DNA from: an uncultured Dehalococcoidaceae bacterium
GTDB lineage: Bacteria > Chloroflexota > Dehalococcoidia > Dehalococcoidales > RBG-16-60-22
Direction: 5' to 3'
Assembly (NCBI GenBank): GCA_964468755.1
Contig: CAYXWH010000003.1
Location: 8,421-72,420, forward strand
Length of the DNA: 64,000 nucleotides
Below the pieces are notes generated by a model. The model saw only the letters and a program-made list of their open reading frames with translations. It was not told the DNA's origin and made no database searches. Shown one piece after another: positions 11,430 to 35,197 of the stretch (the first letter of the stretch is position 1; each line of letters begins with the position of its first letter). The translations under genes and the position numbers were made by a program.

Positions 11430-12437
11430 ATGATAATTGCCGTTGATGCTGCTGGCGGGGATTACGCCCCGCATGAAATTGTCAAGGGAGCCATAAAAGC
11501 CTCTCAGGAATACGGGGTTGAAATTGCCCTGGTAGGCAGGAGAGCCGTGCTTCACGTACTATTAGGGCGTGCCCGGCACAAACCCGGTATCAGTATCGTG
11601 GAAGCAACCCAGACAATTGGTCCCTACGAATCACCGATGAAGGCGCTGCGCAACAAGCCAAAATCATCGATCGTGGTCGGCATTAATCTGGTCAGGGAAG
11701 GCAAGGCGGCAGCATTTGTCTCCGCCGGCAATACCGGCGCAGTATTCGGTGCTGCCCTGGTCAACCTGGGTAAGACAAATGGTATTGAAAGACCGGCTAT
11801 CGGCTGTTTCCTGGATACCATCGGCTCTAACCCTGCGCTGCTGGTCGATGCCGGCGCCAATGCTGAGTGCCGCCCCAAGCATCTGGTTGAATTTGCCAGA
11901 TTAGGCTCCATTTACAGTAGTAATATCCTTAGGATTGACTCACCCCGCGTTGCCCTTCTCAATAACGGTGGAGAGGAAACCAAGGGTAACAGTCTGTCCC
12001 AGGAAAGCTATCAACTCCTTAAACAGACGAAGGAGATAAACTTCATCGGTAATATAGAAGGTCAGGATATCCTGCAAAAGTCCGCCGATGTTATCGTTAC
12101 CGACGGCTTTACCGGCAACATAGTACTCAAAACCATTGAAGGCCTTAGCGATAACTTTCTCACTTCGGCAAAGCAAATAGGGCATGTCTTTTCCAGTCTC
12201 TGTCATCTCCGCGGGCGTGACATGCTCCGCGATATCGGACTGGGTTCACTGGTCAAAAAGATGGATTACACGGAGTACGGCGGAGCCTGCCTCCTCGGTA
12301 TCCAGGGCAATGTAATCATCGCCCACGGGCGCAGTCAGTCGAAAGCGATTAAGAATGCCATCGGCCTTGCCCGAGAGACGGTTGAGCGAAGCACGGTACA
12401 GAAAATAAAGGAGGAAACGCATGAGCAAGCCAATTGA
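11430..12437 (+). CDS. plsX: phosphate acyltransferase PlsX
   Basis: 335-aa ORF with MIIAVDAAGGDYAPHEIVKGA and VTDGFTGNIVLK motifs. Confidence 0.92.
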   Translation: MIIAVDAAGGDYAPHEIVKGAIKASQEYGVEIALVGRRAVLHVLLGRARHKPGISIVEATQTIGPYESPMKALRNKPKSSIVVGINLVREGKAAAFVSAGNTGAVFGAALVNLGKTNGIERPAIGCFLDTIGSNPALLVDAGANAECRPKHLVEFARLGSIYSSNILRIDSPRVALLNNGGEETKGNSLSQESYQLLKQTKEINFIGNIEGQDILQKSADVIVTDGFTGNIVLKTIEGLSDNFLTSAKQIGHVFSSLCHLRGRDMLRDIGLGSLVKKMDYTEYGGACLLGIQGNVIIAHGRSQSKAIKNAIGLARETVERSTVQKIKEETHEQAN

Positions 12438-12747
12438 TATTGATGACAGTAATTTTGAGGAAATTGTCTCGAAGGCAAAGACACCGGTACTGATTGACTT
12501 CTGGGCACCCTGGTGTGCACCATGCAAGATGGTGGCTCCAGTGGTAGAGGAACTGTCAGCAGAATACGAAGGCAAGGTAAGCTTTGGCAAGGTCAATGTA
12601 GACGAGGCGCCGAAGATTGCTGTTAAATACGGGATTATGAGCATTCCCACCCTGATTGTTTTTAAAGACGGACAGCCGGTTTCCAATATAGTCGGCTACA
12701 GGCCAAAAGCCCAGTTAAAGGAAAGCCTGGACGCTGCGCTTGGTTGA
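12421..12747 (+). CDS. trxA: thioredoxin (WCAPC active site)
   Basis: 108-aa ORF with VLIDFWAPWCAPCKMVAPV and GIMSIPTLIVFKDGQ. The active site is CAPC rather than the usual CGPC. Confidence 0.9.
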   Translation: MSKPIDIDDSNFEEIVSKAKTPVLIDFWAPWCAPCKMVAPVVEELSAEYEGKVSFGKVNVDEAPKIAVKYGIMSIPTLIVFKDGQPVSNIVGYRPKAQLKESLDAALG

Positions 12748-13093
12748 GCATAGCATGCACGTTATCATTATCGACGATACCAGTATTGAATCCTGCGAGG
12801 CTCACTGCGGAGTTGACTGGTCTGCGGAAGAAAACATTAAACTGGCCGGTCAACGAATCACCGAACGGTTCAGCGACAGGATAGAAGTGCAGTATATTGA
12901 CCTCTCCAAGTCGTACTTCGAAAAGCAGGCCCGACAATGGCAAAGCAAGATAAAGACAGAACATTTGAACCTGCCGCTGCTGGTTATCAACGGGCGGGTG
13001 CGGATTTCCGGTCAGTTTGACGTCCGTATGCTACTGGATAGTATCGATGCCGAGCGAGAAATTACATATAAAGGTGATACCAATGGACAATAG
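12740..13093 (+). CDS. small Cys-containing protein, possibly thioredoxin-fold (YuzD/DUF1462-like)
   Basis: 117-aa ORF wedged between trxA and trxB, overlapping both. It has CEAHC near the N-terminus, YIDL, and PLLVINGRVRISG, resembling small disulfide-oxidoreductase-like proteins. The assignment is tentative. Confidence 0.4.
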   Translation: MVEHSMHVIIIDDTSIESCEAHCGVDWSAEENIKLAGQRITERFSDRIEVQYIDLSKSYFEKQARQWQSKIKTEHLNLPLLVINGRVRISGQFDVRMLLDSIDAEREITYKGDTNGQ

Positions 13094-14012
13094 CGCTGGA
13101 AAAGAATACGAGGTAATAATCATTGGCGGTGGCCCTGCCGGGCTCTCCGCCGCAATCTACACCTCGAGGGCACGGCTGAGCAGCCTGCTTATAGAGCGAG
13201 GCATAGTAGGCGGGCAAATCATCAATGCCGAGCTGGTGGAGAACTATCCGGGGTTCCCGGAAGGTATCAGTGGCATAGAACTGACCCAGCTCATGCACCA
13301 GCAGGCGACCAAATATGGACTGGCAACGGTAGTCAATGAGGTTACCGGCATTCGGCTAAACGGAGAGCAGAAAATTATCCGGACCACTGGCGGTGATTAC
13401 CCCGCCGGAGCCGTCATCATCGCCAACGGTTCTGAGCGACAAAAGCTTGGTATACCGGGGGAGGCCGAGTTCACCGGCAGAGGAGTATCCTATTGTGCCA
13501 CCTGTGACGCTGCCTTTTTCCGGGAAATGACCGTGGCCGTGGTCGGCGGTGGCAATTCCGCCCTTACCGAAGCCATCCACCTCAGCCGGTTTGCCTCCAG
13601 GGTCGTGGTAATACACCGTCGCGACCAGCTTCGGGCTACCCGGATTGTGCAGGAAAAAGCCATGGCTCTACCCAATATGGAATTCTTGTGGGATACCGTG
13701 GTCGAATCAATCGAAGGCGATGATTTCGTGCAATATCTCAAAGTACGCAACGTGAAGTCCGGGCAGCAGACCAGGCTGGATGTATCCGGCTTCTTCATCT
13801 CGATTGGCATTAAGCCCAATACCGGTTACCTGAAGGATTTAATCCCGATGGATGCCGCCGGTGCTGTCATTACCAACGACCGTATGGAAACTGAGATACC
13901 CGGCATTTTTGCCGCCGGTGACATACGGCATAACTCAGTGTGGCAGGTTATTGCTGCTGCCGGCGACGGGGCTATTGCCGCCATCGCTGCCGAAAAATAC
14001 CTCACCGGATAA
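13083..14012 (+). CDS. trxB: thioredoxin-disulfide reductase
   Basis: The ORF track starts at 13017. I prefer the ATG at 13083 (MDNSAGKEYEVIIIGGGPAGLSAA). Redox-active CATCD is present, plus a second GGGNSA NADPH-binding motif. Confidence 0.92.
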   Translation: MDNSAGKEYEVIIIGGGPAGLSAAIYTSRARLSSLLIERGIVGGQIINAELVENYPGFPEGISGIELTQLMHQQATKYGLATVVNEVTGIRLNGEQKIIRTTGGDYPAGAVIIANGSERQKLGIPGEAEFTGRGVSYCATCDAAFFREMTVAVVGGGNSALTEAIHLSRFASRVVVIHRRDQLRATRIVQEKAMALPNMEFLWDTVVESIEGDDFVQYLKVRNVKSGQQTRLDVSGFFISIGIKPNTGYLKDLIPMDAAGAVITNDRMETEIPGIFAAGDIRHNSVWQVIAAAGDGAIAAIAAEKYLTG

Positions 14013-14030: not shown

Positions 14031-14059
14031 TTCACCAATTTAGTAAAGTGAAGTATAAT
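14031..14059 (+). promoter_or_regulatory. candidate promoter for the rplI-dnaB operon
   Basis: TTCACC (14031-14036), 17-nt spacer, TATAAT (14054-14059), 20 nt before the rplI GTG. Confidence 0.4.
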
Positions 14060-14079: not shown

Positions 14080-14658
14080 GTGAAGGTTGTTTTTTTAGAG
14101 GACGTACCCAACATTGCTGAAGTTGGTCAGATAAAGGATGTATCTGACGGCTACGCCCGGCACTATCTCATACCCAAAAAGCTGGCGGTGTTAGCCAATT
14201 CCGCTGCCTCCAATATCCTGGAAGCACAGCTAAAGAAGAAAGCCAAGCAACTGGCGCAAACCGAAGCGGAAATGACCAAGGTCGCCCAGCAGCTTAAGGG
14301 CAAGGAGCTTGTCCTTAAAGCCAAGGTAGGTGCCAAGGAACGCTTGTACGGCTCGATTACCAGTACCGATATTGCTGACGGAATACGTGACCAACTTGGG
14401 CTGGACATCGATAAAAGAAAGATAGAACTCGCCGAGCCGATACGTGAACTCGGCAGCTATGACGTAAGCATCAAGCTATTTAAAGACATCTCGCCGCAGA
14501 TAAAGGTTACCGTGGCGGCAGAGGAAATTGTCACCGAAGAAAAGAAAGAAATTGCGGAAAAGAAGCCAGGCAAAGCTGAGAAGAAAACCGGGGTAAAGGA
14601 AGAAGCAGAAGAAAAGACAGAAACGGCAGAGGCTGAGGAGAGCGACCAGGTTGTATAA
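14080..14658 (+). CDS. rplI: 50S ribosomal protein L9 with ~45-aa E/K-rich C-terminal extension
   Basis: 192-aa ORF starting MKVVFLEDVPNIAEVGQIKDVSDGYARHYLIPKKLAV. The tail AAEEIVTEEKKEIAEKKPGKAEKK...AEAEESDQVV extends beyond typical L9 length. Confidence 0.9.
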   Translation: MKVVFLEDVPNIAEVGQIKDVSDGYARHYLIPKKLAVLANSAASNILEAQLKKKAKQLAQTEAEMTKVAQQLKGKELVLKAKVGAKERLYGSITSTDIADGIRDQLGLDIDKRKIELAEPIRELGSYDVSIKLFKDISPQIKVTVAAEEIVTEEKKEIAEKKPGKAEKKTGVKEEAEEKTETAEAEESDQVV

Positions 14659-16027
14659 TGAGAAGCTACCGCCGCATGACCCGGATGCTGAAGAAGCCGT
14701 AATCGGCTCGTTGCTGATTGATGGTAACGCGATCTATAAAGTTGCCTCGCTGGTGCAGTCATCGGATTTCTATTATGAGCCGAACCAGTTAATCTACAGT
14801 GCCTGTTATTCGTTATACCAGCGCAACGATGCCATCAATCAGATAACGGTCGCTCAGGAATTGGCCCGGCAGAACAAGCTGGAACCATGCGGTGGCGCCG
14901 CCCACCTGAGCCACCTGATAGCCATCTGCCCCACATCCCTCGACATTGAGCACTATGCTCAAATTGTCTATCGGCTGTCGACAATGCGTAACCTGATAAC
15001 GGCTGCCGACAAGATTGCCGCCCTGGGTCATGAGGCTGGCCCGAACGTCGATGAGAGCCTCAACAAGGCGGAGGACATCCTGTTCCGCCTGCGCCATGGC
15101 CAAAGCTCACGTGACTTCGTCCACATCCGGCATGTGCTGGATAAATACTTCGAGCCGGTCAGTCCGGACGACATGGAAGCTTCCCTGACAGGTCAAGCAC
15201 CATACGTACTCTCCAACTTTACCGGCCTGGACGAATTCCTGGGCGGCTTTCAGCGCTCTGACCTGATAATCGTCGCCGGCAGACCCAGCATGGGTAAGAC
15301 CAGCCTAGCGCTTAATATCGCCCGAAACGCTGCCGTCGAGCAAAAGGCATGCGTGGCACTGTTCAGTCTGGAGATGGCACGGGACTCGCTGGTCTTGCGC
15401 CTGCTTTCCAGTGAATCCGGGGTTAATGCCCGGCGGGTACGGCTGGGGTCCCACAGCGAGGACGACGAAAGAAAAATCATGGACGCCATTGGTGTCCTTT
15501 CGGAATCAGCCATTTACCTTGATGACTCGCCTCAGCTAAGGGTGGTAGAAATGCGCAGTAAAGCCCGCCGTCTCCACTTTGAACGGGGTATCGACATGAT
15601 TATCGTTGACTATCTGCAATTGCTTCAGGGAGAAGGCAGAAATGAAAACCGCGTGCAGGAGATTGGCTATATCTCCCGTTCACTTAAGGCATTGGCCCGT
15701 GAACTTAATGTGTCGGTGATTGCCGTATCCCAGCTCAGTAGAGCGGTAGAATGGCGGGCATCGCACATGCCCCAGCTCTCTGACCTGCGGGAAAGTGGTA
15801 GTATCGAACAGGATGCTGACGTGGTAATGTTTATCTACCGTGATGAATACTACTACAACGAAGAGGAATGGCAGAACCAGCACCCGGATAGAGAATATCC
15901 GCGAGAAGAGGCAGACGTAATTATCGCCAAACACCGTAATGGCCCCACCGGCCAGGTCAAGCTGCGTTTCCGCCACAACCTGGCCCGCTTTGATAATATC
16001 GGCAGTGCTGAGCCAAAGCTAATATGA
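14651..16027 (+). CDS. dnaB: replicative DNA helicase DnaB
   Basis: 458-aa ORF with a TTG start overlapping the rplI stop. Motifs: LPPHDPDAEEAVIGSLL, Walker A GRPSMGKTS, and SQLSR. Confidence 0.95.
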   Translation: MYNEKLPPHDPDAEEAVIGSLLIDGNAIYKVASLVQSSDFYYEPNQLIYSACYSLYQRNDAINQITVAQELARQNKLEPCGGAAHLSHLIAICPTSLDIEHYAQIVYRLSTMRNLITAADKIAALGHEAGPNVDESLNKAEDILFRLRHGQSSRDFVHIRHVLDKYFEPVSPDDMEASLTGQAPYVLSNFTGLDEFLGGFQRSDLIIVAGRPSMGKTSLALNIARNAAVEQKACVALFSLEMARDSLVLRLLSSESGVNARRVRLGSHSEDDERKIMDAIGVLSESAIYLDDSPQLRVVEMRSKARRLHFERGIDMIIVDYLQLLQGEGRNENRVQEIGYISRSLKALARELNVSVIAVSQLSRAVEWRASHMPQLSDLRESGSIEQDADVVMFIYRDEYYYNEEEWQNQHPDREYPREEADVIIAKHRNGPTGQVKLRFRHNLARFDNIGSAEPKLI

Positions 16028-16734
16028 AGCAGTTTAACGGTTTTCCCGCCAGGATGGATTTTGCCGCTATACCCAGACTCTTCTTCAGTGCCTTGCTGCC
16101 GGAAATAAATGACATGGCAGAGTTGAAGACGAGCCTGCACGTGATGGCAGCGCTGTACCGGAAACGGGGGTATCCCCGCGTGGTCACCCTGGGAGAATTG
16201 CTGGATAATGCCAGCCTGATGAACAGCCTTAAAAGCTTTGCCAAGCCACCGGATGAAGTCCTGCGTGGTGCGCTGAAGCTGGCTACCGAGCGGGGTACAT
16301 TCCTCCATATTGCGATGGAGAGAGACGCAGCGGGCGAGGATGTCTATCTCCTTAACGATGAGTCCGGACGGCAGGTCGCCGCCAGGATTCAAAGCGGTGA
16401 GGTCAAGATACCCGGCTTTAAACCGGTAGCACCGCGATACGTTGAAACCGGGGAGCCGCCCAACATTTTTACCCTTTACGAACAGAACATCGGGCTACTC
16501 ACTCCTATAATTGCCGATGAACTGCGCGAGGCAGAAAAGCTTTACCCGGAAAATTGGATTGTCGATGCCATCAAAGAAGCGACCTTGCTTAACAAGCGTA
16601 ACATACGATACATTATGAAGATTCTGCAGCGCTGGTCTTCAGAAGGCAAAAGTGATGGAGCATATCAGCGAGATTCTAAAAAGGGCACAGATAAATACTT
16701 CAAGCAAAAATACGGGCACATGGTCCAGCGATGA
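16024..16734 (+). CDS. DnaD-domain replication protein
   Basis: 236-aa ORF with an ATGA overlap with dnaB. The C-terminal YEQNIGLLTPIIADELREAEKLYPENWIVDAIKEA...IRYIMKILQRW matches the DnaD/DnaB_2 C-terminal domain. Confidence 0.65.
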   Translation: MKQFNGFPARMDFAAIPRLFFSALLPEINDMAELKTSLHVMAALYRKRGYPRVVTLGELLDNASLMNSLKSFAKPPDEVLRGALKLATERGTFLHIAMERDAAGEDVYLLNDESGRQVAARIQSGEVKIPGFKPVAPRYVETGEPPNIFTLYEQNIGLLTPIIADELREAEKLYPENWIVDAIKEATLLNKRNIRYIMKILQRWSSEGKSDGAYQRDSKKGTDKYFKQKYGHMVQR

Positions 16735-18049
16735 CGAGAAATCCCCGGCAAACCCGGACTGTCCCCTTTGCCAGGGAGCTGGCTTCGTCCACCCGCTGCT
16801 GCCCACAGGAAAGCCTGACTACACTCAGGTTATTCCCTGCGACTGCGTAAAAAAGGTAGTAGACAAAGAACGCCAGGATCGCTTGGAACTGTACAGCAAC
16901 CTGGGCTTTTTGACCCGCTTCACCTTCGATAAGCTGCAGCCCCGGGGCATGAGTCAGAACCCTCAATACCAGGAGCAATTCAATCGCGCCTATGAAGCCG
17001 CCAAATCCTTTGCCGCCGAACCGAAAGGTTGGTTCATCTTAAGCGGGCCCAGTGGTTGCGGCAAGACCCACCTTGCCGCCGCTATTGCCAACGAGTGCCG
17101 TCGTCAGGGTTTCCCGGTTTTGTACCAGACCACGCCCGACCTGCTTGACCACCTGCGCGCCACTTTTTTGCCGGGGAGCGAAGTCCCCTACGATTATTTC
17201 TTCGATAAGGTCCGCAACGCTCCATTGCTAATACTGGATGATCTGGGCGCTCAAACCGTCACACCCTGGTCTAACGAAAAGCTTGACCAGCTCCTGACCT
17301 ACCGCTTCAATAGTGAGTTACCTACCGCTATAGTTACCATCCAGTCACTTGACCAGCTCGATGACAGGCTGCGCACCCGCCTGACCAATTCAGCAATATG
17401 CCAGATGCACACTATCGAAGAAGAGACAGCTTCGTCAGTATACCAGTGGGGACCGGAGTTTGCCGCCCAGAGGAGGATGACCTTCGCCAGTTTCGACTGG
17501 CGGCGGGTCAACCTGCCGGCGGAACAACGCGAGAACCTGGAGACTGCCTATCGCCTGGCTCTTGATTTTGCCGGCTCGCCGGAAGGCTGGCTGGTACTCC
17601 AGGGAGTAAACGGCTGTGGCAAGACTCATCTGGCATCCGCAATTGTAAACTCGCGCTACCAGGCTAATCAGCCGGCTCTTTTCGTGGTGGTACCCGAGTT
17701 TCTTGACCACCTGCGCTACACCTTCAGCCCGGAAAGCAAGGTATCCTATGACCAGCTTTTCGAGAGTGTCAAGAAAGCCCCGCTTCTGGTGCTGGATGAC
17801 TTCGGCGAACAATCAACCACTCCCTGGGCACAGGAGAAGCTCTACCAGGTAATCAACTATCGCTATAATGCGCTGCTGCCCACTGTCATCACCACCGTCT
17901 GCTCCCTGGACGAGATTGAGGGGCGGGTTGGTTCCAGGCTGATTGATAACAAGCTCAGCACCTTTTTCCACATCACTGTACCTGACTACCGCGGTGACCT
18001 GTATTCCGGCCGCAGAAAAGCATCACCCAAAAATAGAAAAAACCGGTAA
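16655..18049 (+). CDS. DnaC/DnaI-like helicase loader with two tandem AAA+ modules
   Basis: N-terminal zinc-ribbon-like CPLCQGAGF...CDC. Two Walker A motifs (GPSGCGKTHLAAAIAN at ~17045; GVNGCGKTHLASAIVN at ~17603) and two Walker B motifs (LLILDDLG; LLVLDDFG). The flanking segments are alignable with each other. Confidence 0.8.
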   Translation: MEHISEILKRAQINTSSKNTGTWSSDDEKSPANPDCPLCQGAGFVHPLLPTGKPDYTQVIPCDCVKKVVDKERQDRLELYSNLGFLTRFTFDKLQPRGMSQNPQYQEQFNRAYEAAKSFAAEPKGWFILSGPSGCGKTHLAAAIANECRRQGFPVLYQTTPDLLDHLRATFLPGSEVPYDYFFDKVRNAPLLILDDLGAQTVTPWSNEKLDQLLTYRFNSELPTAIVTIQSLDQLDDRLRTRLTNSAICQMHTIEEETASSVYQWGPEFAAQRRMTFASFDWRRVNLPAEQRENLETAYRLALDFAGSPEGWLVLQGVNGCGKTHLASAIVNSRYQANQPALFVVVPEFLDHLRYTFSPESKVSYDQLFESVKKAPLLVLDDFGEQSTTPWAQEKLYQVINYRYNALLPTVITTVCSLDEIEGRVGSRLIDNKLSTFFHITVPDYRGDLYSGRRKASPKNRKNR

Positions 18050-18280
18050 TACGAAACCCTCTTCACAGACTATGTTACGGTGCATCAGGCACCTATTACG
18101 ACCTCTCACCATAACCCCGGCCGGGCTACGGGGCATTCACCCGATATACCAGCCGAATTCCCTTCCCGGAATCTTCTCCAGCCAAACAGGCGTTATTCAG
18201 TATAATTTGACTTTTCATTCAACACAATGCAAGCCACATTATAAATATGACAAAATGGTATTATTTTGGTCAAATAACGC

Positions 18281-18309
18281 TTGACTTTTTATTCAACATT
18301 ATATATAAT
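18281..18309 (+). promoter_or_regulatory. sigma70-type promoter of the HTH membrane protein gene
   Basis: TTGACT (18281-18286), 17-nt spacer, TATAAT (18304-18309), 34 nt before the ATG at 18343. It lies inside the N-terminal extension proposed by the ORF track. Confidence 0.5.
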
Positions 18310-18342
18310 CATTCAAATACTGCACCCCCGGGGTCTTTAGTC

Positions 18343-20262
18343 ATGAATGAAGCGAAAAAATTCGGGATAAGGTTAAGGGAATTAAGAGTCAAAGCCGGCA
18401 TGACGCTGCGGGAACTTGCCAATGCAGTCAACATTGACTTCACCTACCTCAGCAAGATCGAAAATGGCATAATGCCTCCCCCCAGCGAAAAGGTACTACT
18501 GCAACTGGCTGAAGCCCTTAATACCGACCAAGATGAACTGCTCACTTTAGCCGGCAGAATACCGCCCGATATCGCTGAAATCCTGAAAGACCCGGAGGCA
18601 TTGGCCATGCTACGCTCGAAGCATGTCCAAAAGAAGAGTGAACCATCGGGCTGGAAAGGGGTTAAAATGCCAAGACCATCAGCTACGCTAAAAACGTTAT
18701 ACCGGGTGGCTATCCCGCTCATTCTGGTCATCGCCGTGGCTACCTCATTGTGGTTTGCCACCCCAACCAAGGCACTCACCATAGACTATCCAACGCTTCC
18801 CAGCGGAAATGTCGGCAGTACTCACTCCGGTCAGGTAGTGATTACCATTGAAGATAATGAGCATCTGCCGGTACAGAGTATTAATATGGAGATTTACAAT
18901 GTAGCTGACTCCACCAAGAAGGCGACCTGTACCTACCTGCCCACAACCGCTACCACCAAGAACTATTCTAGCGCTCAGACCGGTAACGGTGGCGCAGTCG
19001 CGGTTACTGCCACAACCGGTTTTGGCTGGCAGTACGTAACCAAGGCGGGTTATGCCGACTGGAAAGGGTCCGCCTATACCTGGCTTCCCATGGCCGGTTA
19101 CGGCTACGCCTATAGCCCCGGCTCAGTCTCGATAACCTATGACATAACCTGGTCGTCACCTTCGGGATGGCCCAGCGGCGACTATAAAATCAAAACCGAG
19201 ATTATCGCCAACGGTAATACCTTTACCGAGTATAGCGGCTCGTTCACCCTTGTTGCCGCCACCGGCGGTGGCTCAGTGCCGGCGACTAAGCCAGGAGCCA
19301 CCAATGTTACCAATGCGGTTAATATGCACGGTGAATTCAACCAGACGGTGACGGCAACATCCGCCGATGGAAACATCTCAATGACCATTAACAGGGGTAC
19401 CACCGGCAAGGACAAACATGGACAGACACTTAGAGAAATACTCATAGTACCGTCAAGCACACCGCCGGCGCCGCCACCACAGGCGAATATCATCGGTCTG
19501 CCCTATAATTTCGGGCCTGACGGAGCCACTTTCGACCCGCCGATTACCATTACGTTTACCTATGACCCGGCGACAATTCCCGAAGGGGTTGAGCCCGGTG
19601 ACCTGGTTATTGCCTTCTGGGATGAGAATACCAATCAGTGGGTCAAACTGGATAACATCGTTGTCGACCCGGTCTCTCATACCATCAGCGGAGAAACCAG
19701 CCACTTCACCACCTTCTCGGTCATCGCCCATACCGGTCCCGCCGGGTTTACCTTCAGTCAGCTTAACGTTACCCCCACCGATGCCACGGCTGGAGACATG
19801 GTTACCATTGAGGTCACCGTAACCAACACCGGCGACCTTAACGGCGATTGCGAAGTAATTCTTAAAATTGGTGACGAGGTATCCGAAGTCAGGCAGGTAA
19901 CGGTGGCCGGACACAGTAGCCAGCAGGTAAGCTTCACCACCACCATGGCTGATGCGGGAAGCTACACGGTGGACGTGAACGGGTTAGCCGGCACCATGAC
20001 CGTTTTACCGGCAGCGGGCCCCGCACCAGAACCCACAACCCCACCGTCTCCACCGGTACAACCGGCCCCGGCACCACCGGCTCCGGCTCCGGAACCACCA
20101 ACCCAGGCGCCAACAGTGCCAGCACCGGTGCCACCATCGGTAACACCAGAGCCATCACCGGAGGCACAAGCGTTTAACTGGTGGTATGTCGGCGGCGGTA
20201 TTATCGGCGCTATCATATTGATTACCATCGTTACCATGCTGGTGGTACGCCGCAGAGAATAG
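18343..20262 (+). CDS. XRE-family HTH protein anchored by two TM helices with a large extracytoplasmic beta-rich/CARDB-like domain
   Basis: Start moved to the ATG at 18343 (MNEAKKFGIRLRELRVKAGMTLRELANAVNIDFTYLSKIENG = HTH_3). TM1 is YRVAIPLILVIAVATSLWFA. About 430 aa are extracytoplasmic, including a CARDB-like VTIEVTVTNTGDLNGDCEVILKIGDE...SYTVDVNG. A P/A-rich linker precedes the C-terminal TM GGGIIGAIILITIVTMLVV-RRRE. Confidence 0.75.
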   Translation: MNEAKKFGIRLRELRVKAGMTLRELANAVNIDFTYLSKIENGIMPPPSEKVLLQLAEALNTDQDELLTLAGRIPPDIAEILKDPEALAMLRSKHVQKKSEPSGWKGVKMPRPSATLKTLYRVAIPLILVIAVATSLWFATPTKALTIDYPTLPSGNVGSTHSGQVVITIEDNEHLPVQSINMEIYNVADSTKKATCTYLPTTATTKNYSSAQTGNGGAVAVTATTGFGWQYVTKAGYADWKGSAYTWLPMAGYGYAYSPGSVSITYDITWSSPSGWPSGDYKIKTEIIANGNTFTEYSGSFTLVAATGGGSVPATKPGATNVTNAVNMHGEFNQTVTATSADGNISMTINRGTTGKDKHGQTLREILIVPSSTPPAPPPQANIIGLPYNFGPDGATFDPPITITFTYDPATIPEGVEPGDLVIAFWDENTNQWVKLDNIVVDPVSHTISGETSHFTTFSVIAHTGPAGFTFSQLNVTPTDATAGDMVTIEVTVTNTGDLNGDCEVILKIGDEVSEVRQVTVAGHSSQQVSFTTTMADAGSYTVDVNGLAGTMTVLPAAGPAPEPTTPPSPPVQPAPAPPAPAPEPPTQAPTVPAPVPPSVTPEPSPEAQAFNWWYVGGGIIGAIILITIVTMLVVRRRE

Positions 20263-33670: not shown

Positions 33671-34966
33671 CTAGCACCGGTTGGTCCTGACACCCAGATA
33701 CTTTGCCACCAGCTCCATAGCGCAGTATTCGCCGCACATGCTACACGCCGGACTGGCCGAGGTATGTTTCCCGTGCACGCTTTTAACCCGCTCCGGGTCC
33801 AGAGCCAGGCGTGCCTGCTCATCCCAATCAAGGTTCTTGCGAGCCAGTGACATCTTCTTGTCCCGCTCTGCCGCTCCCGCCACTCCCTTGACGATATCCG
33901 CAGCGTGCGCTGCGATTCGCGAGGCGATTACTCCTTGCCTCACATCGTCAATATCGGGTAATGACAGGTGCTCCGACGGTGTCACATAGCAGAGAAAATC
34001 GGTACCGGCAGCGGCAGCAATAGCCCCGCCGATGGCGCCGGTTATATGGTCATAGCCAGCAGCCACATCAGTCACCAGCGGCCCCAGCACGTAAAAGGGG
34101 GCTTCATGACAGAGCGACTTCTGCAAGCGGACATTGGCTTCAATATGGTTCAACGGCAAATGCCCCGGTCCTTCAACCATCGCCTGAACACCAGCCTGCT
34201 GTGCCCTCTGGACTAGCTCGCCGATGACGAGCAATTCCTCTATTTGAGCCCGGTCGGTGGCATCAGCCAGACTACCGGGACGCATACCATCACCCAGGCT
34301 CAGAGTGACATCATACTCACTGGCTATCTCCAGAAGACGGTCGTAGTGCTCATATAACGGGTTTTCGCGCTCATTATGGAGAATCCAGCCAATCAGGAAA
34401 GCACCCCCCCGGGAAACCACATCAGCCACCCTTCCCTGCTTCTTGAGACGGTCAATAGCCGACCGGGTTACCCCACAATGCACGGTCAGGAAATCAACAC
34501 CATCCCGGGCGTGCTCTTCAATGACCGAAAAGAATTCATCAACAGTCATCTTCACTATAGCACCGTGTTTGTCAATGGCTTGAATACCGGCCTGATAAAT
34601 GGGCACCGTGCCCAACGCTACCTGACTGGCGGCAACAATTGCCCGTCGAAGTCCCGATATATCACCGCCGGTGCTCAAGTCCATAACGGTATCGGCACCG
34701 GCATCAACCGCCGTCTGTAGCTTGGCTAACTCGGTATCAAAGCTGCCAAAGTCCGGGGATGTTCCAATATTGGCATTCACCTTGGTCGCCAGGCCCCGGC
34801 CAATGCCACCGGGAACGAGCCCGGTATGATTGATATTCGCCGGAATGACGATTACACCATCGGCTATACCCTGACGGATAAATTCAGCTTCCAGCCCCTC
34901 AGCCCTGGCTACCAGTTCCATTTCAGGAGAAATATCACCCTTTTTCGCCGTGTCTACCTGAGTCAT
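33671..34966 (-). CDS. thiC: phosphomethylpyrimidine synthase
   Basis: Start set at the ATG at 34966 ([10 protein letters not shown]), preceded by AGGAG. Radical-SAM ThiC pattern with the C-terminal CSMCGEYCA cluster motif. A TPP riboswitch lies directly upstream. Confidence 0.95.
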
Positions 34967-34975
34967 CGCCACTCC

Positions 34976-35116
34976 TAAAAATAAAACCAAGGGCTACGAC
35001 GACTGCTAAACCCTTGGTCCAAACTGTTTCCGCTTCCCTACGCTCGCATTACCGAGAGCAGGTTCACAGGGTTGGCACCAAATCGCCTCTCAGCCTCTTC
35101 GAGCACCCCTAGCGGT
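34976..35116 (-). ncRNA. TPP (THI-box) riboswitch with terminator expression platform
   Basis: The reverse strand reads CUAGGGGUGCUCGAAGAGGCUGAGAGGCGAUUUGGUGCCAACCCUGUGAACCUGCUCUCGGUAAUGCGAGCGUAGGGAAGCGG, containing the conserved GGGGUGC, CUGAGA, ACCCU-GAACCUG and GUAGGGAA elements. It is followed by ACCAAGGG-N17-CCCUUGGU plus UUUUAUUUUU (34976-35018). Confidence 0.85.
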
Positions 35117-35197
35117 TTAACTACTATTCCAGAATATACCACAAACTTTGTTAAAGTTCAAACGGGTAGCACCTGCCGACTTATACCGTCACCTGGT

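Follow-up and report, generated by a model that had tools for sequence, protein, structure and literature searches.

A putative replicative helicase loader with two diverged AAA+ modules per chain in Dehalococcoidales and other Chloroflexota

Work on the mechanism of bacterial helicase loaders (DnaC of Escherichia coli, DnaI of Bacillus and Staphylococcus, DnaC of Aquifex) has dealt exclusively with single-module homo-oligomers, and because the loaders studied are homo-oligomers, their six ATP sites are indistinguishable. In E. coli DnaC, residues K143, F146, S177 and Y179 take part in the grip on ssDNA, the sensor I substitution N203A abolishes the ATPase activity, and R237 is the sensor II arginine (PMC8213410); in S. 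aureus DnaI, the latter is Arg304 in the C-terminal tail. The DnaB hexamer is bound by three DnaI dimers (PMC3791466). For Dehalococcoides, Anaerolinea, Chloroflexus and Roseiflexus, one resident dna[CI] gene and no dciA have been reported (Brezellec et al. 2016).

The gene described here is the last one in an overlapping rplI-dnaB-DnaD-domain-loader operon located in the window, i.e., the whole stretch of 64 kb that was analysed. Its product is probably a resident replicative helicase loader of the dna[CI] lineage that is built as a covalent pseudo-dimer, the ATP sites of which have diverged. Current annotation of such proteins, "ATP-binding protein" or "DnaC", gives no sign of the duplicated architecture.

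Loader gene, its two modules and their number in Chloroflexota

The open reading frame of the loader begins at 16652 (GTG) or 16655 (ATG) and encodes 465 or 464 amino acids, respectively. The ATG is taken as the start because the N-terminal consensus of the family is MEHIxEIL; residue numbers are counted from the in-frame GTG. The features of the gene and of the operon are collected in Table 1.

Table 1. Features of the loader gene and its operon (window positions; M1 and M2, first and second AAA+ module)
Feature	Position	Strand	Evidence and remarks
rplI (ribosomal protein L9), first operon gene	14080..14658	+	Pfam Ribosomal_L9_N and Ribosomal_L9_C; 8-nt overlap with dnaB
dnaB replicative helicase, presumed loader client	14651..16027	+	Pfam DnaB 9e-28, DnaB_C 7.7e-102; 4-nt overlap with next gene
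DnaD/DnaB_2-domain protein, candidate co-loader or adaptor	16024..16734	+	Pfam DnaB_2 6.2e-8; NCBIfam DnaD_dom 38.8 bits vs cut-off 24.95
Tandem-AAA+ helicase loader gene (putative)	16655..18049	+	ORF list, Pfam, BLASTP, family alignment
N-terminal tail, residues 1-35	16652..16756	+	Predicted disorder; conserved T23-W24-S25; mostly inside gene overlap
Four-Cys zinc ribbon C37-x2-C40 ... C63-x-C65	16757..16849	+	Presumed helicase-binding N-domain; one per chain
AAA+ module 1 (M1), residues 89-255	16916..17416	+	Walker A K138; Walker B D196-D197; putative box VII R239/R243; I230 replaces sensor I Asn; sensor II Arg absent
M1 Walker A, G132-T139, GPSGCGKT	17045..17068	+	Conservation of K138
M1 Walker B acidic pair D196-D197	17237..17242	+	99% conserved
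Inter-module linker, residues 256-274	17417..17473	+	Least conserved internal segment, W266 and F270 excepted
AAA+ module 2 (M2), residues 275-441	17474..17974	+	Walker A K324; Walker B D382-D383; putative box VII R425/R429; V416 replaces sensor I Asn, conserved T414-T415 before it
M2 Walker A, G318-T325, GVNGCGKT	17603..17626	+	K324 100% conserved
M2 Walker B acidic pair D382-D383	17795..17800	+	100% conserved
M2 tail P444-D445-Y446-R447, sensor II equivalent	17981..17992	+	P444 99%, R447 85%

A Pfam search identifies IstB_IS21 (PF01695) in two stretches of the protein (97.5 bits against a gathering cut-off of 24.1), in agreement with the initial annotation, which had described a DnaC/DnaI-type loader homologue with a zinc-ribbon-like N-terminus followed by two complete, alignable AAA+ modules. 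All the motifs quoted there are indeed present, namely CPLCQGAGF...CDC, the pair GPSGCGKTHLAAAIAN / GVNGCGKTHLASAIVN, and the pair LLILDDLG / LLVLDDFG. A BLASTP comparison of the N-terminal half with the C-terminal half aligns residues 89-255 with residues 275-441 without gaps, with 74 of the 167 positions identical (44%) and E=7e-53. The nucleotide sequences of the two modules are 54% identical, third codon positions only 38%, and the longest exact run is 15 nt, so that the duplication is old, and a recent or assembly-derived origin is ruled out.

The four cysteines of the zinc ribbon are invariant in 50 homologues, and the same ribbon is found in single-module and four-module relatives. In the family alignment, S25 of the preceding tail is invariant and T23 and W24 are conserved in at least 90% of the sequences; the AlphaFold2 model assigns a pLDDT below 50 to residues 1-32. 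The mean frequency of the top residue in the inter-module linker is 0.50, with W266 and F270 again at 90% or higher, and the pLDDT is low near residues 176-178 of the modelled two-module core.

Sequence searches against solved structures place E. coli DnaC, Aquifex DnaC and DnaI at the top, and Foldseek searches with individual modules identify the same group (6qem_G, rmsd 2.8 A; 3ecc, TMt 0.72; 2w58, 0.71; 5he8, 0.76), so that both modules resemble DnaC and DnaI in fold. The NCBIfam equivalog models all score below their cut-offs (DnaI NF006505, 122.5 vs 228; DnaC NF005931, 113.6 vs 357; IstB NF038214, 118.7 vs 200); the subfamily model PRK08116 is passed with 199.3 vs 189, a score reached only by summing the modules, the halves alone giving 94 and 108.5. 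AlphaFold2 models the individual modules with confidence (pLDDT up to 90), with the M1-M2 orientation not fixed and a pTM of 0.46 for the full chain and, in a run that used a deeper alignment, 0.59 for the core of two modules. In this model, beta2 and beta3 are separated by two helices of high pLDDT in either module (residues 161-171 and 180-188 in M1, 347-356 and 366-374 in M2), and each module thus is predicted to contain the motif that is specific to the initiator/loader clade. Each module stops right after beta5, i.e., there is no lid. Membership in the type II double-ring AAA+ proteins (p97/NSF/ClpB) was considered and rejected, given the missing lids and no sign of stacked D1/D2 rings; likewise, the whole-chain Foldseek matches to p97/Cdc48/NVL (TMq 0.22-0.36, rmsd 12-23 A) were discarded as a structural analogy that reflects only the presence of two AAA+ domains in one chain.

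Both modules are present in all of the best 120 homologues, and two full modules are detected in 97 of the best 150 cluster representatives at 50% identity. The two-module loader is the rule in Dehalococcoidales, is found also in Anaerolineae, and is widespread in two or more classes of Chloroflexota. The case that the initial annotation had named as a refutation of its reading, single-domain homologues with this genome as a lone exception, is not borne out: within the clade, the homologues are uniformly two-module. In other Chloroflexota, the same operon slot is occupied by a single-module (locus L082) or a four-module (locus L081) orthologue. The single-module loaders (P0193 and P0274, 281 aa; P0200, 248 aa) probably represent the ancestral state.

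A neighbour-joining tree of 120 modules has internal branches too short to resolve, and some of its "single-module" entries are truncated tandem proteins; an attempt to count duplication events from this tree was dropped on account of the unresolved internal branches. As a local result, modules 1-3 of the four-module protein P0121 cluster together, beside M1 of the tandem protein P0145, and module 4 of P0121 lies beside M2 of P0145, so that the four-module form derives from a two-module ancestor. A literature search, in which subscription journals were thinly covered, found no description of multi-module DnaC/DnaI loaders. The two-module design is old and widespread, and apparently has not been described before.

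ATP sites and possible roles of the modules

Conservation was assessed in 79 family members, 48 diverse tandem proteins and 19 single-module proteins. Both modules contain the Walker A (GxxGxGK[T/S]) and Walker B (hhhhD[D/E]) motifs; the Walker A lysines K138 and K324 are present in 100% of the family members, and both this lysine and the first Walker B aspartate are found in 48 of the 48 diverse tandem proteins in each module. The four ssDNA-contacting residues of DnaC named above correspond to R169, F172, T204 and W206 in M1 and to R355, F358, T390 and W392 in M2, and these positions are conserved in both modules across the diverse tandem proteins. A conserved R-x3-R pattern, the putative box VII with its arginine finger, occurs in both modules as well; its second arginine is 94-100% conserved, and the box VII Arg is found in 43/48 first and 46/48 second modules of the diverse set. 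The ungapped HMMER register sets R429 against DnaC R216, not R220, in conflict with the R-x3-R pattern, so that the register here is ambiguous.

The residues of hydrolysis have been lost to an unequal extent. An HMMER alignment to DnaI, Aquifex DnaC and E. coli DnaC indicates that the sensor I asparagine is lost in both modules of this protein; it is retained in 14 of the 19 single-module proteins, and in 22 M1 and 5 M2 of the 48 tandem proteins. Given that the loss of this residue is sufficient to inactivate the DnaC ATPase, ATP turnover by the loader may be weak or absent, and the Dehalococcoidales branch, in which neither module has the asparagine, might load the helicase with little or no ATP hydrolysis. 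The sensor II arginine of M2, R447 (85% conserved), is located six residues past beta5, the same spacing as for DnaC R237; there is no counterpart after M1, where the equivalent position lacks an Arg. All five catalytic motifs occur in both modules in only one of the 48 diverse tandem proteins; the full set is found in 13 of the 19 single-module proteins. The mean pairwise identity is 70.5% for M2 vs 60.9% for M1 (p=2e-5). Thus, at the level of sequence, the divergence of the two ATP sites that had been proposed from the letters alone is upheld by the stronger conservation of M2, the loss of the sensor II Arg tail from M1 and the near absence of doubly catalytic proteins. Other branches, the Anaerolineae type and P0121 among them, have fully catalytic modules on the N-terminal side and a degenerate last module.

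The most probable explanation of these observations is the following scheme. In an ancestral protein that combined a zinc ribbon with a single AAA+ domain, the latter would have been duplicated in frame, yielding a chain with one ribbon and two loader modules, which would be co-expressed with its client DnaB and the DnaD-domain partner from one overlapping operon. Binding of DnaB and its ATP-dependent loading by the tandem protein are presumed from the co-operonic linkage. Given that the nucleotide-binding, putative box VII and ssDNA-grip positions are kept, both modules are likely to bind ATP and to join an ATP-dependent AAA+ spiral that would hold DnaB open and touch the ssDNA. For such action in pairs, the three DnaI dimers on the DnaB hexamer are a precedent. 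The two ATP sites may have split roles, as in clamp loaders or ORC, one serving mainly in binding and assembly and the other being the better candidate for turnover and release.

The number of chains in such an assembly is a matter of speculation, and this applies to the arrangement of three chains per DnaB hexamer, in a fixed register, that the initial annotation had proposed. Orthologues with one and four modules occupy the same operon slot, so that a two-module 3:6 arrangement is not required by the system, and the flexible number of modules per chain weakens any model with a fixed stoichiometry; furthermore, with one zinc ribbon per two modules, the 6:6 contacts of the DnaC N-domains could not be copied. 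We tentatively suggest, as a possibility that falls somewhat short of even chances, that the DnaB-loading spiral of Chloroflexota is assembled from covalently linked modules, 1, 2 or 4 per chain, and that six modules would be provided by three chains of the two-module form, ATP-binding assembly sites and turnover/release sites sharing the work.

The main competing possibility, which we regard as unlikely, is that only M2 is a working loader AAA+ domain and M1 is a degenerate pseudo-ATPase that acts as an adaptor, a spacer or an autoinhibitory domain, so that six chains would bind the DnaB hexamer as in the case of DnaC. It is in line with the faster evolution of M1, with the lack of a sensor I Asn as well as a sensor II Arg in M1 of this subfamily, with the best matches of the single-module relatives, which are to M2, and with the single zinc ribbon per chain, which suits a 6:6 contact with DnaB. 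However, M1 retains the Walker A Lys in 100%, the Walker B D-D pair in 99% and the box VII Arg in 94% of the sequences, along with the equivalents of the four ssDNA contacts, none of which would be needed in a spacer. The reverse distribution of catalytic and degenerate modules in the Anaerolineae type and in P0121 also speaks against this explanation: the catalytic position differs among the branches, so that neither module position is generally dead.

Still less probable is the assembly of six tandem chains, that is, 12 modules, on each DnaB hexamer, in the form of a longer filament, a two-tier assembly or a bridge between two hexamers for dual origin loading. One helicase-binding zinc ribbon per chain would preserve the N-domain contacts of the DnaC type, and the four modules per chain of the variant at L081 do not divide six evenly. 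AAA+ proteins of the DnaC/DnaA clade form open-ended spirals, which also counts in favour of such an assembly. Against it stands the single-module orthologue in the same slot, which suggests that a DnaC-like number of modules is sufficient.

Should the spiral of covalently linked modules be the correct reading, these loaders would be a natural single-chain counterpart of the heteromeric clamp loaders and ORC. They would also offer a test, set up by nature, of the reason for the six identical ATP sites in DnaC. With fused, diverged modules, each ATP site can be mutated separately and the neighbours of each module are fixed, and the single- and four-module orthologues are built-in controls. It thus becomes possible to ask how many of the loader ATP sites have to bind and how many have to hydrolyse, how many contacts with N-domains are necessary for DnaB, and whether loaders work in pairs, a possibility raised by the trimer-of-dimers crystal of DnaI. 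The family also bears on the unstudied initiation of replication in Anaerolineae and in Dehalococcoidia, among them the organohalide respirers Dehalococcoides and Dehalogenimonas.

Operon and genomic context

The rplI-dnaB-dnaD-like-loader operon recognised in the initial annotation is confirmed by searches of the neighbouring genes, with L9, DnaB and the DnaD/DnaB_2 protein encoded at the expected places. The order L9-DnaB-DnaD-loader is kept across 80 related genomes wherever the contig is long enough. At its 3' end, the DnaD-like gene extends 80 nt into the loader gene in a different frame, and an overlap of 80-89 nt is found in 61 of 66 related loci. A promoter-like site, identified as a consensus match only, is located upstream of rplI (14031-14059). 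The neighbours of the loader gene are dnaB, the DnaD-domain gene and a gene for an HTH/CARDB membrane protein; no transposase gene adjoins it, and no other DnaC-like ORF was found within the 64 kb.

The absence of a neighbouring transposase and the conserved chromosomal operon make a role in replication far more likely than that of an IS21 IstB helper, as the initial annotation had argued, and the synteny in the 80 related genomes is the kind of conserved context by which domesticated resident dna[CI] genes are recognised (Brezellec et al. 2016). Admittedly, the best Pfam name is IstB_IS21, pairs of DnaD-like and DnaC-like genes are frequent in phages, dna[CI] genes are thought to be phage-derived, and single-module relatives, with less than 60% identity, are present in 699 phage records. 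Nevertheless, the reading that this is a mobile-element protein and not the chromosomal loader, either an IstB-type helper or part of a DnaD+DnaC replication module of a prophage, appears highly improbable: the operon opens with rplI and is not adjoined by a transposase, the loader gene lies between dnaB and the DnaD-like gene on one side and housekeeping genes on the other in an order that is constant in dozens of species-level genomes, the IstB equivalog model scores well short of its cut-off, and each of the listed phage matches covers about 630-660 nt of the record, the equivalent of one module.

An artefact (a collapsed assembly repeat or adjacent genes fused by a sequencing error) is refuted by the conservation across genomes. 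Although a relative with three modules, two of them nearly identical (P0122, on a contig of 5.7 kb), indicates that an artefact or a very recent duplication is possible in the family, this ORF recurs undivided across at least 80 independently assembled species-level genomes and hundreds of contigs from metagenomes, and the divergence of the modules, already held against an artefact in the initial annotation, amounts to the 54% nucleotide identity and 15-nt longest run given above.

Comparison with known systems

DnaI of Bacillus, Staphylococcus and Geobacillus (PDB entries 2w58, 4m4w and 5he8) shares with the tandem loader the order of an N-terminal zinc module followed by an AAA+ domain of the DnaC/DnaI clade, the Asp-Asp Walker B pair (D225/D226 in S. 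aureus DnaI), the location of the sensor II Arg, for M2 alone, in the very last part of the chain, and the position of the gene beside that of a DnaD/DnaB_2-domain partner; the fold match per module is 0.71-0.76 (TMt). The differences are the single AAA+ domain per chain in DnaI vs two in the tandem loader and the intact sensor I, N260 in S. aureus DnaI vs I230 and V416; among the 25 listed Pfam families, no match of the tandem loader to DnaI_N occurs.

E. coli DnaC (6qel/6qem) is the best match among solved structures by sequence, and one module superposes on it with an rmsd of 2.8 A. The likeness extends to the ssDNA tetrad, which has equivalents in both modules, and to the sensor II-like Arg at an equal distance from beta5. 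In contrast to the tandem loader, the N-domain of DnaC is helical and zinc-free, its Walker B pair is D-E, N203 is intact, and the protein, with its single module, binds DnaB in a 6:6 complex. The IS21 protein IstB (5bq5, 8q3w) belongs to the same Pfam family, PF01695, and to the same AAA+ clade, but is a single-module protein whose gene accompanies that of the IstA transposase on a mobile element, and forms a decamer on dsDNA.

The single-module loaders of Chloroflexota are similar to the tandem loader in the zinc ribbon, the type of AAA+ domain with the PDYR tail and the rplI-dnaB-DnaB_2-loader operon (L082), and differ in having one module, with the full catalytic set in the majority of them (13 of 19). 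Two AAA+ modules in one chain are found also in p97, and the clamp loader and ORC combine catalytic and degenerate ATP sites in one assembly. The type II AAA+ proteins (p97/Cdc48, NSF) and the heteromeric loaders (clamp loader, ORC-Cdc6) are analogies only, as the tandem modules belong to the initiator/loader clade. Within that clade, all characterised DnaC/DnaI members have one AAA+ module per polypeptide, whereas the loader described here has two.

The tandem AAA+ loader and its family assignment

The loader contains two AAA+ modules, M1 (residues 89-255, numbered from the GTG codon) and M2 (residues 275-441), which align without gaps, with 44% identity and E=7e-53, in a BLASTP comparison of the N-terminal and C-terminal halves. 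The downstream ATG is favored as the start by the N-terminal family consensus MEHIxEIL. The modules follow a ribbon with four cysteines (C37, C40, C63, C65), all invariant. All the motif strings cited in the initial annotation are found in the protein, and its description as two DnaC/DnaI-type modules in one chain is borne out by the self-match and by Pfam, in which IstB_IS21 (PF01695) matches two stretches with 97.5 bits (cut-off, 24.1). The modules show 54% nucleotide identity (38% at third codon positions) and share no exact run longer than 15 nt; the duplication is therefore old and, as had been argued from the divergence of the modules, it cannot be an assembly artifact. Conservation of the tandem across genomes likewise rules out an artifact.

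Both modules are homologous, in sequence and predicted fold, to the AAA+ domains of helicase loaders. The top sequence matches among solved structures are DnaC from E. coli (6qel/6qem) and Aquifex (3ec2/3ecc) and DnaI (2w58, 4m4w, 5he8). Confidence in the AlphaFold2 model of each module is high, with mean pLDDT reaching 76.8 over the full chain and 90.4 when the two-module core is modeled, and Foldseek superpositions of one module give 2.8 A on 6qem_G and TMt 0.72, 0.71 and 0.76 on 3ecc, 2w58 and 5he8, respectively. In the model, the two helices between beta2 and beta3 of each module represent the initiator/loader-specific motif, and the modules stop just past beta5, without a lid domain, like DnaC and DnaI. 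The curated NCBIfam equivalogs are all missed (DnaI, 122.5 vs 228; DnaC, 113.6 vs 357; IstB, 118.7 vs 200); the only curated model passed is PRK08116, a generic subfamily model, and only by summing the two modules. These scores place the loader in the DnaC/DnaI lineage but outside all named orthologous groups.

Public databases already contain members of the family, which has been recognized as the resident dna[CI] of Chloroflexi. A single dna[CI] domestication is counted in Chloroflexi, and one resident dna[CI], with no dciA, is tabulated for Dehalococcoides, Anaerolinea, Chloroflexus and Roseiflexus (Brezellec et al. 2016); the text and supplements of that study do not mention the duplicated architecture. 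In the literature searched, incompletely, no description was found of the multi-module architecture and its spread, of the series of 1, 2 and 4 modules, or of the asymmetric decay of the ATP sites.

Distribution and number of modules

All 120 best database homologs span 92-100% of the query, with lengths of 444-476 aa except for two longer fusions, so that the two-module form is not, as the initial annotation had considered, an exception of this genome among uniformly single-domain homologs. They are labeled 'ATP-binding protein' or 'DNA replication protein DnaC' and the sources, where named, are Chloroflexota, Dehalococcoidia or Dehalococcoidales. The GTDB representative genomes contain at least 567 stretches that code for relatives, and 78 of the best 80, among which are Dehalogenimonas and a Dehalococcoides mccartyi MAG, match nearly the entire query. 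When 1.84 billion 50%-identity representatives are searched exhaustively with HMMER, 621 match at E<=1e-30; among the best 150, two full modules are present in 97, three in one (P0122), four in one (P0121), and one in about 50, many of which are contig-end fragments. Some single-module entries are genuine (248-290 aa, zinc ribbon and one module). A search started with P0223, a distant tandem member (33% identical to the loader), adds 120 two-module proteins, which are 426-487 aa long and in several cases named Anaerolineae; all source names observed for the homologs are Chloroflexota. None of the 699 matching phage records reaches 60% identity, and the matches listed cover only a single module (~630-660 nt).

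The four-module protein P0121 (827 aa, Chloroflexota) combines one zinc ribbon with four diverged modules and follows an intein-containing dnaB and a DnaB_2-domain gene (locus L081, 3433-8484, on a 64 kb contig). Given that a single-module relative is encoded in an L9-DnaB-DnaB_2-loader operon (locus L082), the same operon slot is occupied by loaders with 1, 2 or 4 modules. Modules 1-3 of P0121 retain all five motifs (Walker A, Walker B, sensor I, box VII Arg and sensor II), and module 4 lacks sensors I and II. In local groupings of a neighbor-joining tree with poorly resolved internal branches, modules 1-3 cluster together beside M1 of the relative P0145, and module 4 lies beside its M2, a pattern implying M1 amplification in a two-module ancestor. 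P0122 (792 aa), with the Walker B sequence LDG instead of LDD, has nearly identical modules 1 and 2 and a repeated C-terminal segment and lies on an ENA contig of 5.7 kb; it may thus be an assembly artifact, or else the product of a very recent duplication.

State of the ATP sites and stoichiometry

Mutagenesis of E. coli DnaC has assigned roles to Walker A K112, Walker B E170, sensor I N203, the Arg finger R220, sensor II R237, the coupling residue R216 and the ssDNA contacts K143/F146/S177/Y179 (PMC8213410). The key residues of S. aureus DnaI are K170, D225/D226, N260, R288 and R304 (PMC4887207). Conservation was assessed in 79 Dehalococcoidales sequences, 48 diverse complete tandem proteins and 19 single-module proteins. 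The Walker A Lys is present in 100% of the Dehalococcoidales set and, like the first Walker B Asp, in 48/48 of both M1 and M2 in the tandem set; Asp also occupies the second acidic position in 41/48 M1 and 38/48 M2. Equivalents of the ssDNA contacts are kept in both modules (R169/F172/T204/W206 and R355/F358/T390/W392). Box VII of both modules contains R-x3-R, with the second Arg most conserved (R243, 94%; R429, 100%; 43/48 M1 and 46/48 M2 in tandem proteins). An ungapped HMMER alignment places R429 opposite DnaC R216; the R-x3-R spacing and the S-R-L signature, similar to that of DnaA box VII, favor R429 as the candidate finger.

The sensor I Asn is replaced in both modules of the loader (I230 and V416); it is kept in 14/19 single-module proteins, 22/48 M1 and 5/48 M2. 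The sensor II Arg lies in the P-D-Y-R tail of M2 (R447, 85% conserved), six residues past beta5, at the distance found for R237 in DnaC, and its M1 equivalent is absent from this subfamily. All five motifs occur in both modules of only one of the 48 tandem proteins, in M1 only in 19, in M2 only in 4 and in neither module in 24, and in 13 of the 19 single-module proteins. The pattern of the loader (M1 ++-+-, M2 ++-++, in motif order) is the second most common among the tandem proteins. Mean pairwise identity is higher for M2 (70.5%) than for M1 (60.9%; paired Wilcoxon p=2e-5). Judging by these counts, duplicated proteins keep the residues for nucleotide and DNA binding in all their modules, and the hydrolysis residues of one module or more have decayed asymmetrically, in a manner that differs between lineages. 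The suggested divergence of the two ATP sites is thus seen at the sequence level.

The proposal that such pseudo-dimers load as three chains per DnaB hexamer is speculative; a pairwise unit has a precedent in a crystal structure at 7.5 A in which three DnaI dimers are bound to DnaB6 (PMC3791466). A fixed 3:6 design is weakened by the single zinc ribbon per two modules, the M1-M2 interface that AlphaFold2 does not predict confidently (pTM 0.46 for the full chain, 0.59 for the core), the one- and four-module orthologs, and the lack of the sensor I Asn in both modules, which also puts the need for hydrolysis in question. Six chains per hexamer, and hence 12 modules, would be an alternative. The possibility that M1 is a dead adaptor and M2 alone is functional is weakened because M1 conserves its P-loop, its Walker B, its box VII Arg and the residues that contact DNA, and because in some branches it is the N-terminal modules that are intact.

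Operon context and proposed mechanism

The loader closes a set of four genes with successive overlaps of 8, 4 and 80 nt, as expected from the rplI-dnaB-dnaD-like-loader operon initially proposed, and a module HMM applied to all six frames of the 64 kb window detects no second DnaC-like ORF. The order (TrxR-like)-L9-DnaB-DnaD-loader is repeated in related loci wherever the contig is long enough, so that co-operonic linkage of the loader to dnaB and the DnaD-domain gene is conserved. Derivation from an IS21 or prophage module is rejected in favor of the chromosomal replication role originally preferred, given this synteny and the sub-threshold IstB score, and because no transposase lies next to the gene.

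Features of the loader locus and its surroundings in the window
Feature	Position	Strand	Basis or remark
Thioredoxin-like ORF	12421-12747	+	WCAPC motif, read by eye; upstream of rplI
Thioredoxin-reductase-like ORF	13017-14012	+	CATC motif, read by eye; upstream of rplI
rplI	14080-14658	+	Pfam
dnaB	14651-16027	+	Pfam, DnaB_C E=7.7e-102
DnaD/DnaB_2-domain gene	16024-16734	+	Pfam / NCBIfam domain match
Tandem-AAA+ loader ORF	16652 (GTG) / 16655 (ATG) to 18049	+	ORF call
DnaD-domain gene/loader overlap	16655-16734		two different frames
Loader residues T23-W24-S25	16718-16726		
671 aa protein	18247-20262	+	directly 3' of loader
ORF	33671-34990	-	
TPP riboswitch	35018-35120	-	68.9 bits vs gathering score 54.3; just upstream of the preceding ORF

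The overlap between the DnaD-domain gene and the loader is a conserved dual-coding stretch of ~27 codons (median 83 nt; 80-89 nt in 61 of 66 related loci, with an identical frame offset in 65), which suggests tight translational coupling of the two genes. Within the N-terminal tail, predicted to be disordered (AlphaFold2 pLDDT <50), S25 is nevertheless invariant and T23 and W24 are at least 90% conserved, which could stem from a short linear binding motif or simply from the dual-coding overlap. Outside the operon, the thioredoxin-reductase-like gene is syntenic in 42 of 80 related loci and the 671 aa protein in only 2; the latter, with an N-terminal Cro/C1-type HTH, a CARDB domain, a Pro/Ala-rich stretch and a C-terminal hydrophobic segment, is predicted to be an unusual membrane-anchored HTH protein. 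ARAGORN finds no tRNA or tmRNA gene in the window.

The two-module loader should be of moderate to good interest to specialists in replication initiation, mainly because it offers a natural and tractable means of dissecting the ATP sites of loaders. In the mechanism that we propose, M1 and M2 would both bind ATP and enter the AAA+ spiral that opens DnaB, gripping ssDNA; one ATP site would mainly steady the assembly, and the other would be the better candidate for turnover and release. The zinc ribbon would tether the chain to DnaB, like the N-domain of DnaI, and the DnaD-domain partner may serve as an adaptor, by analogy with B. subtilis DnaB, which acts in this capacity by contacting DnaI (PMC13326638).
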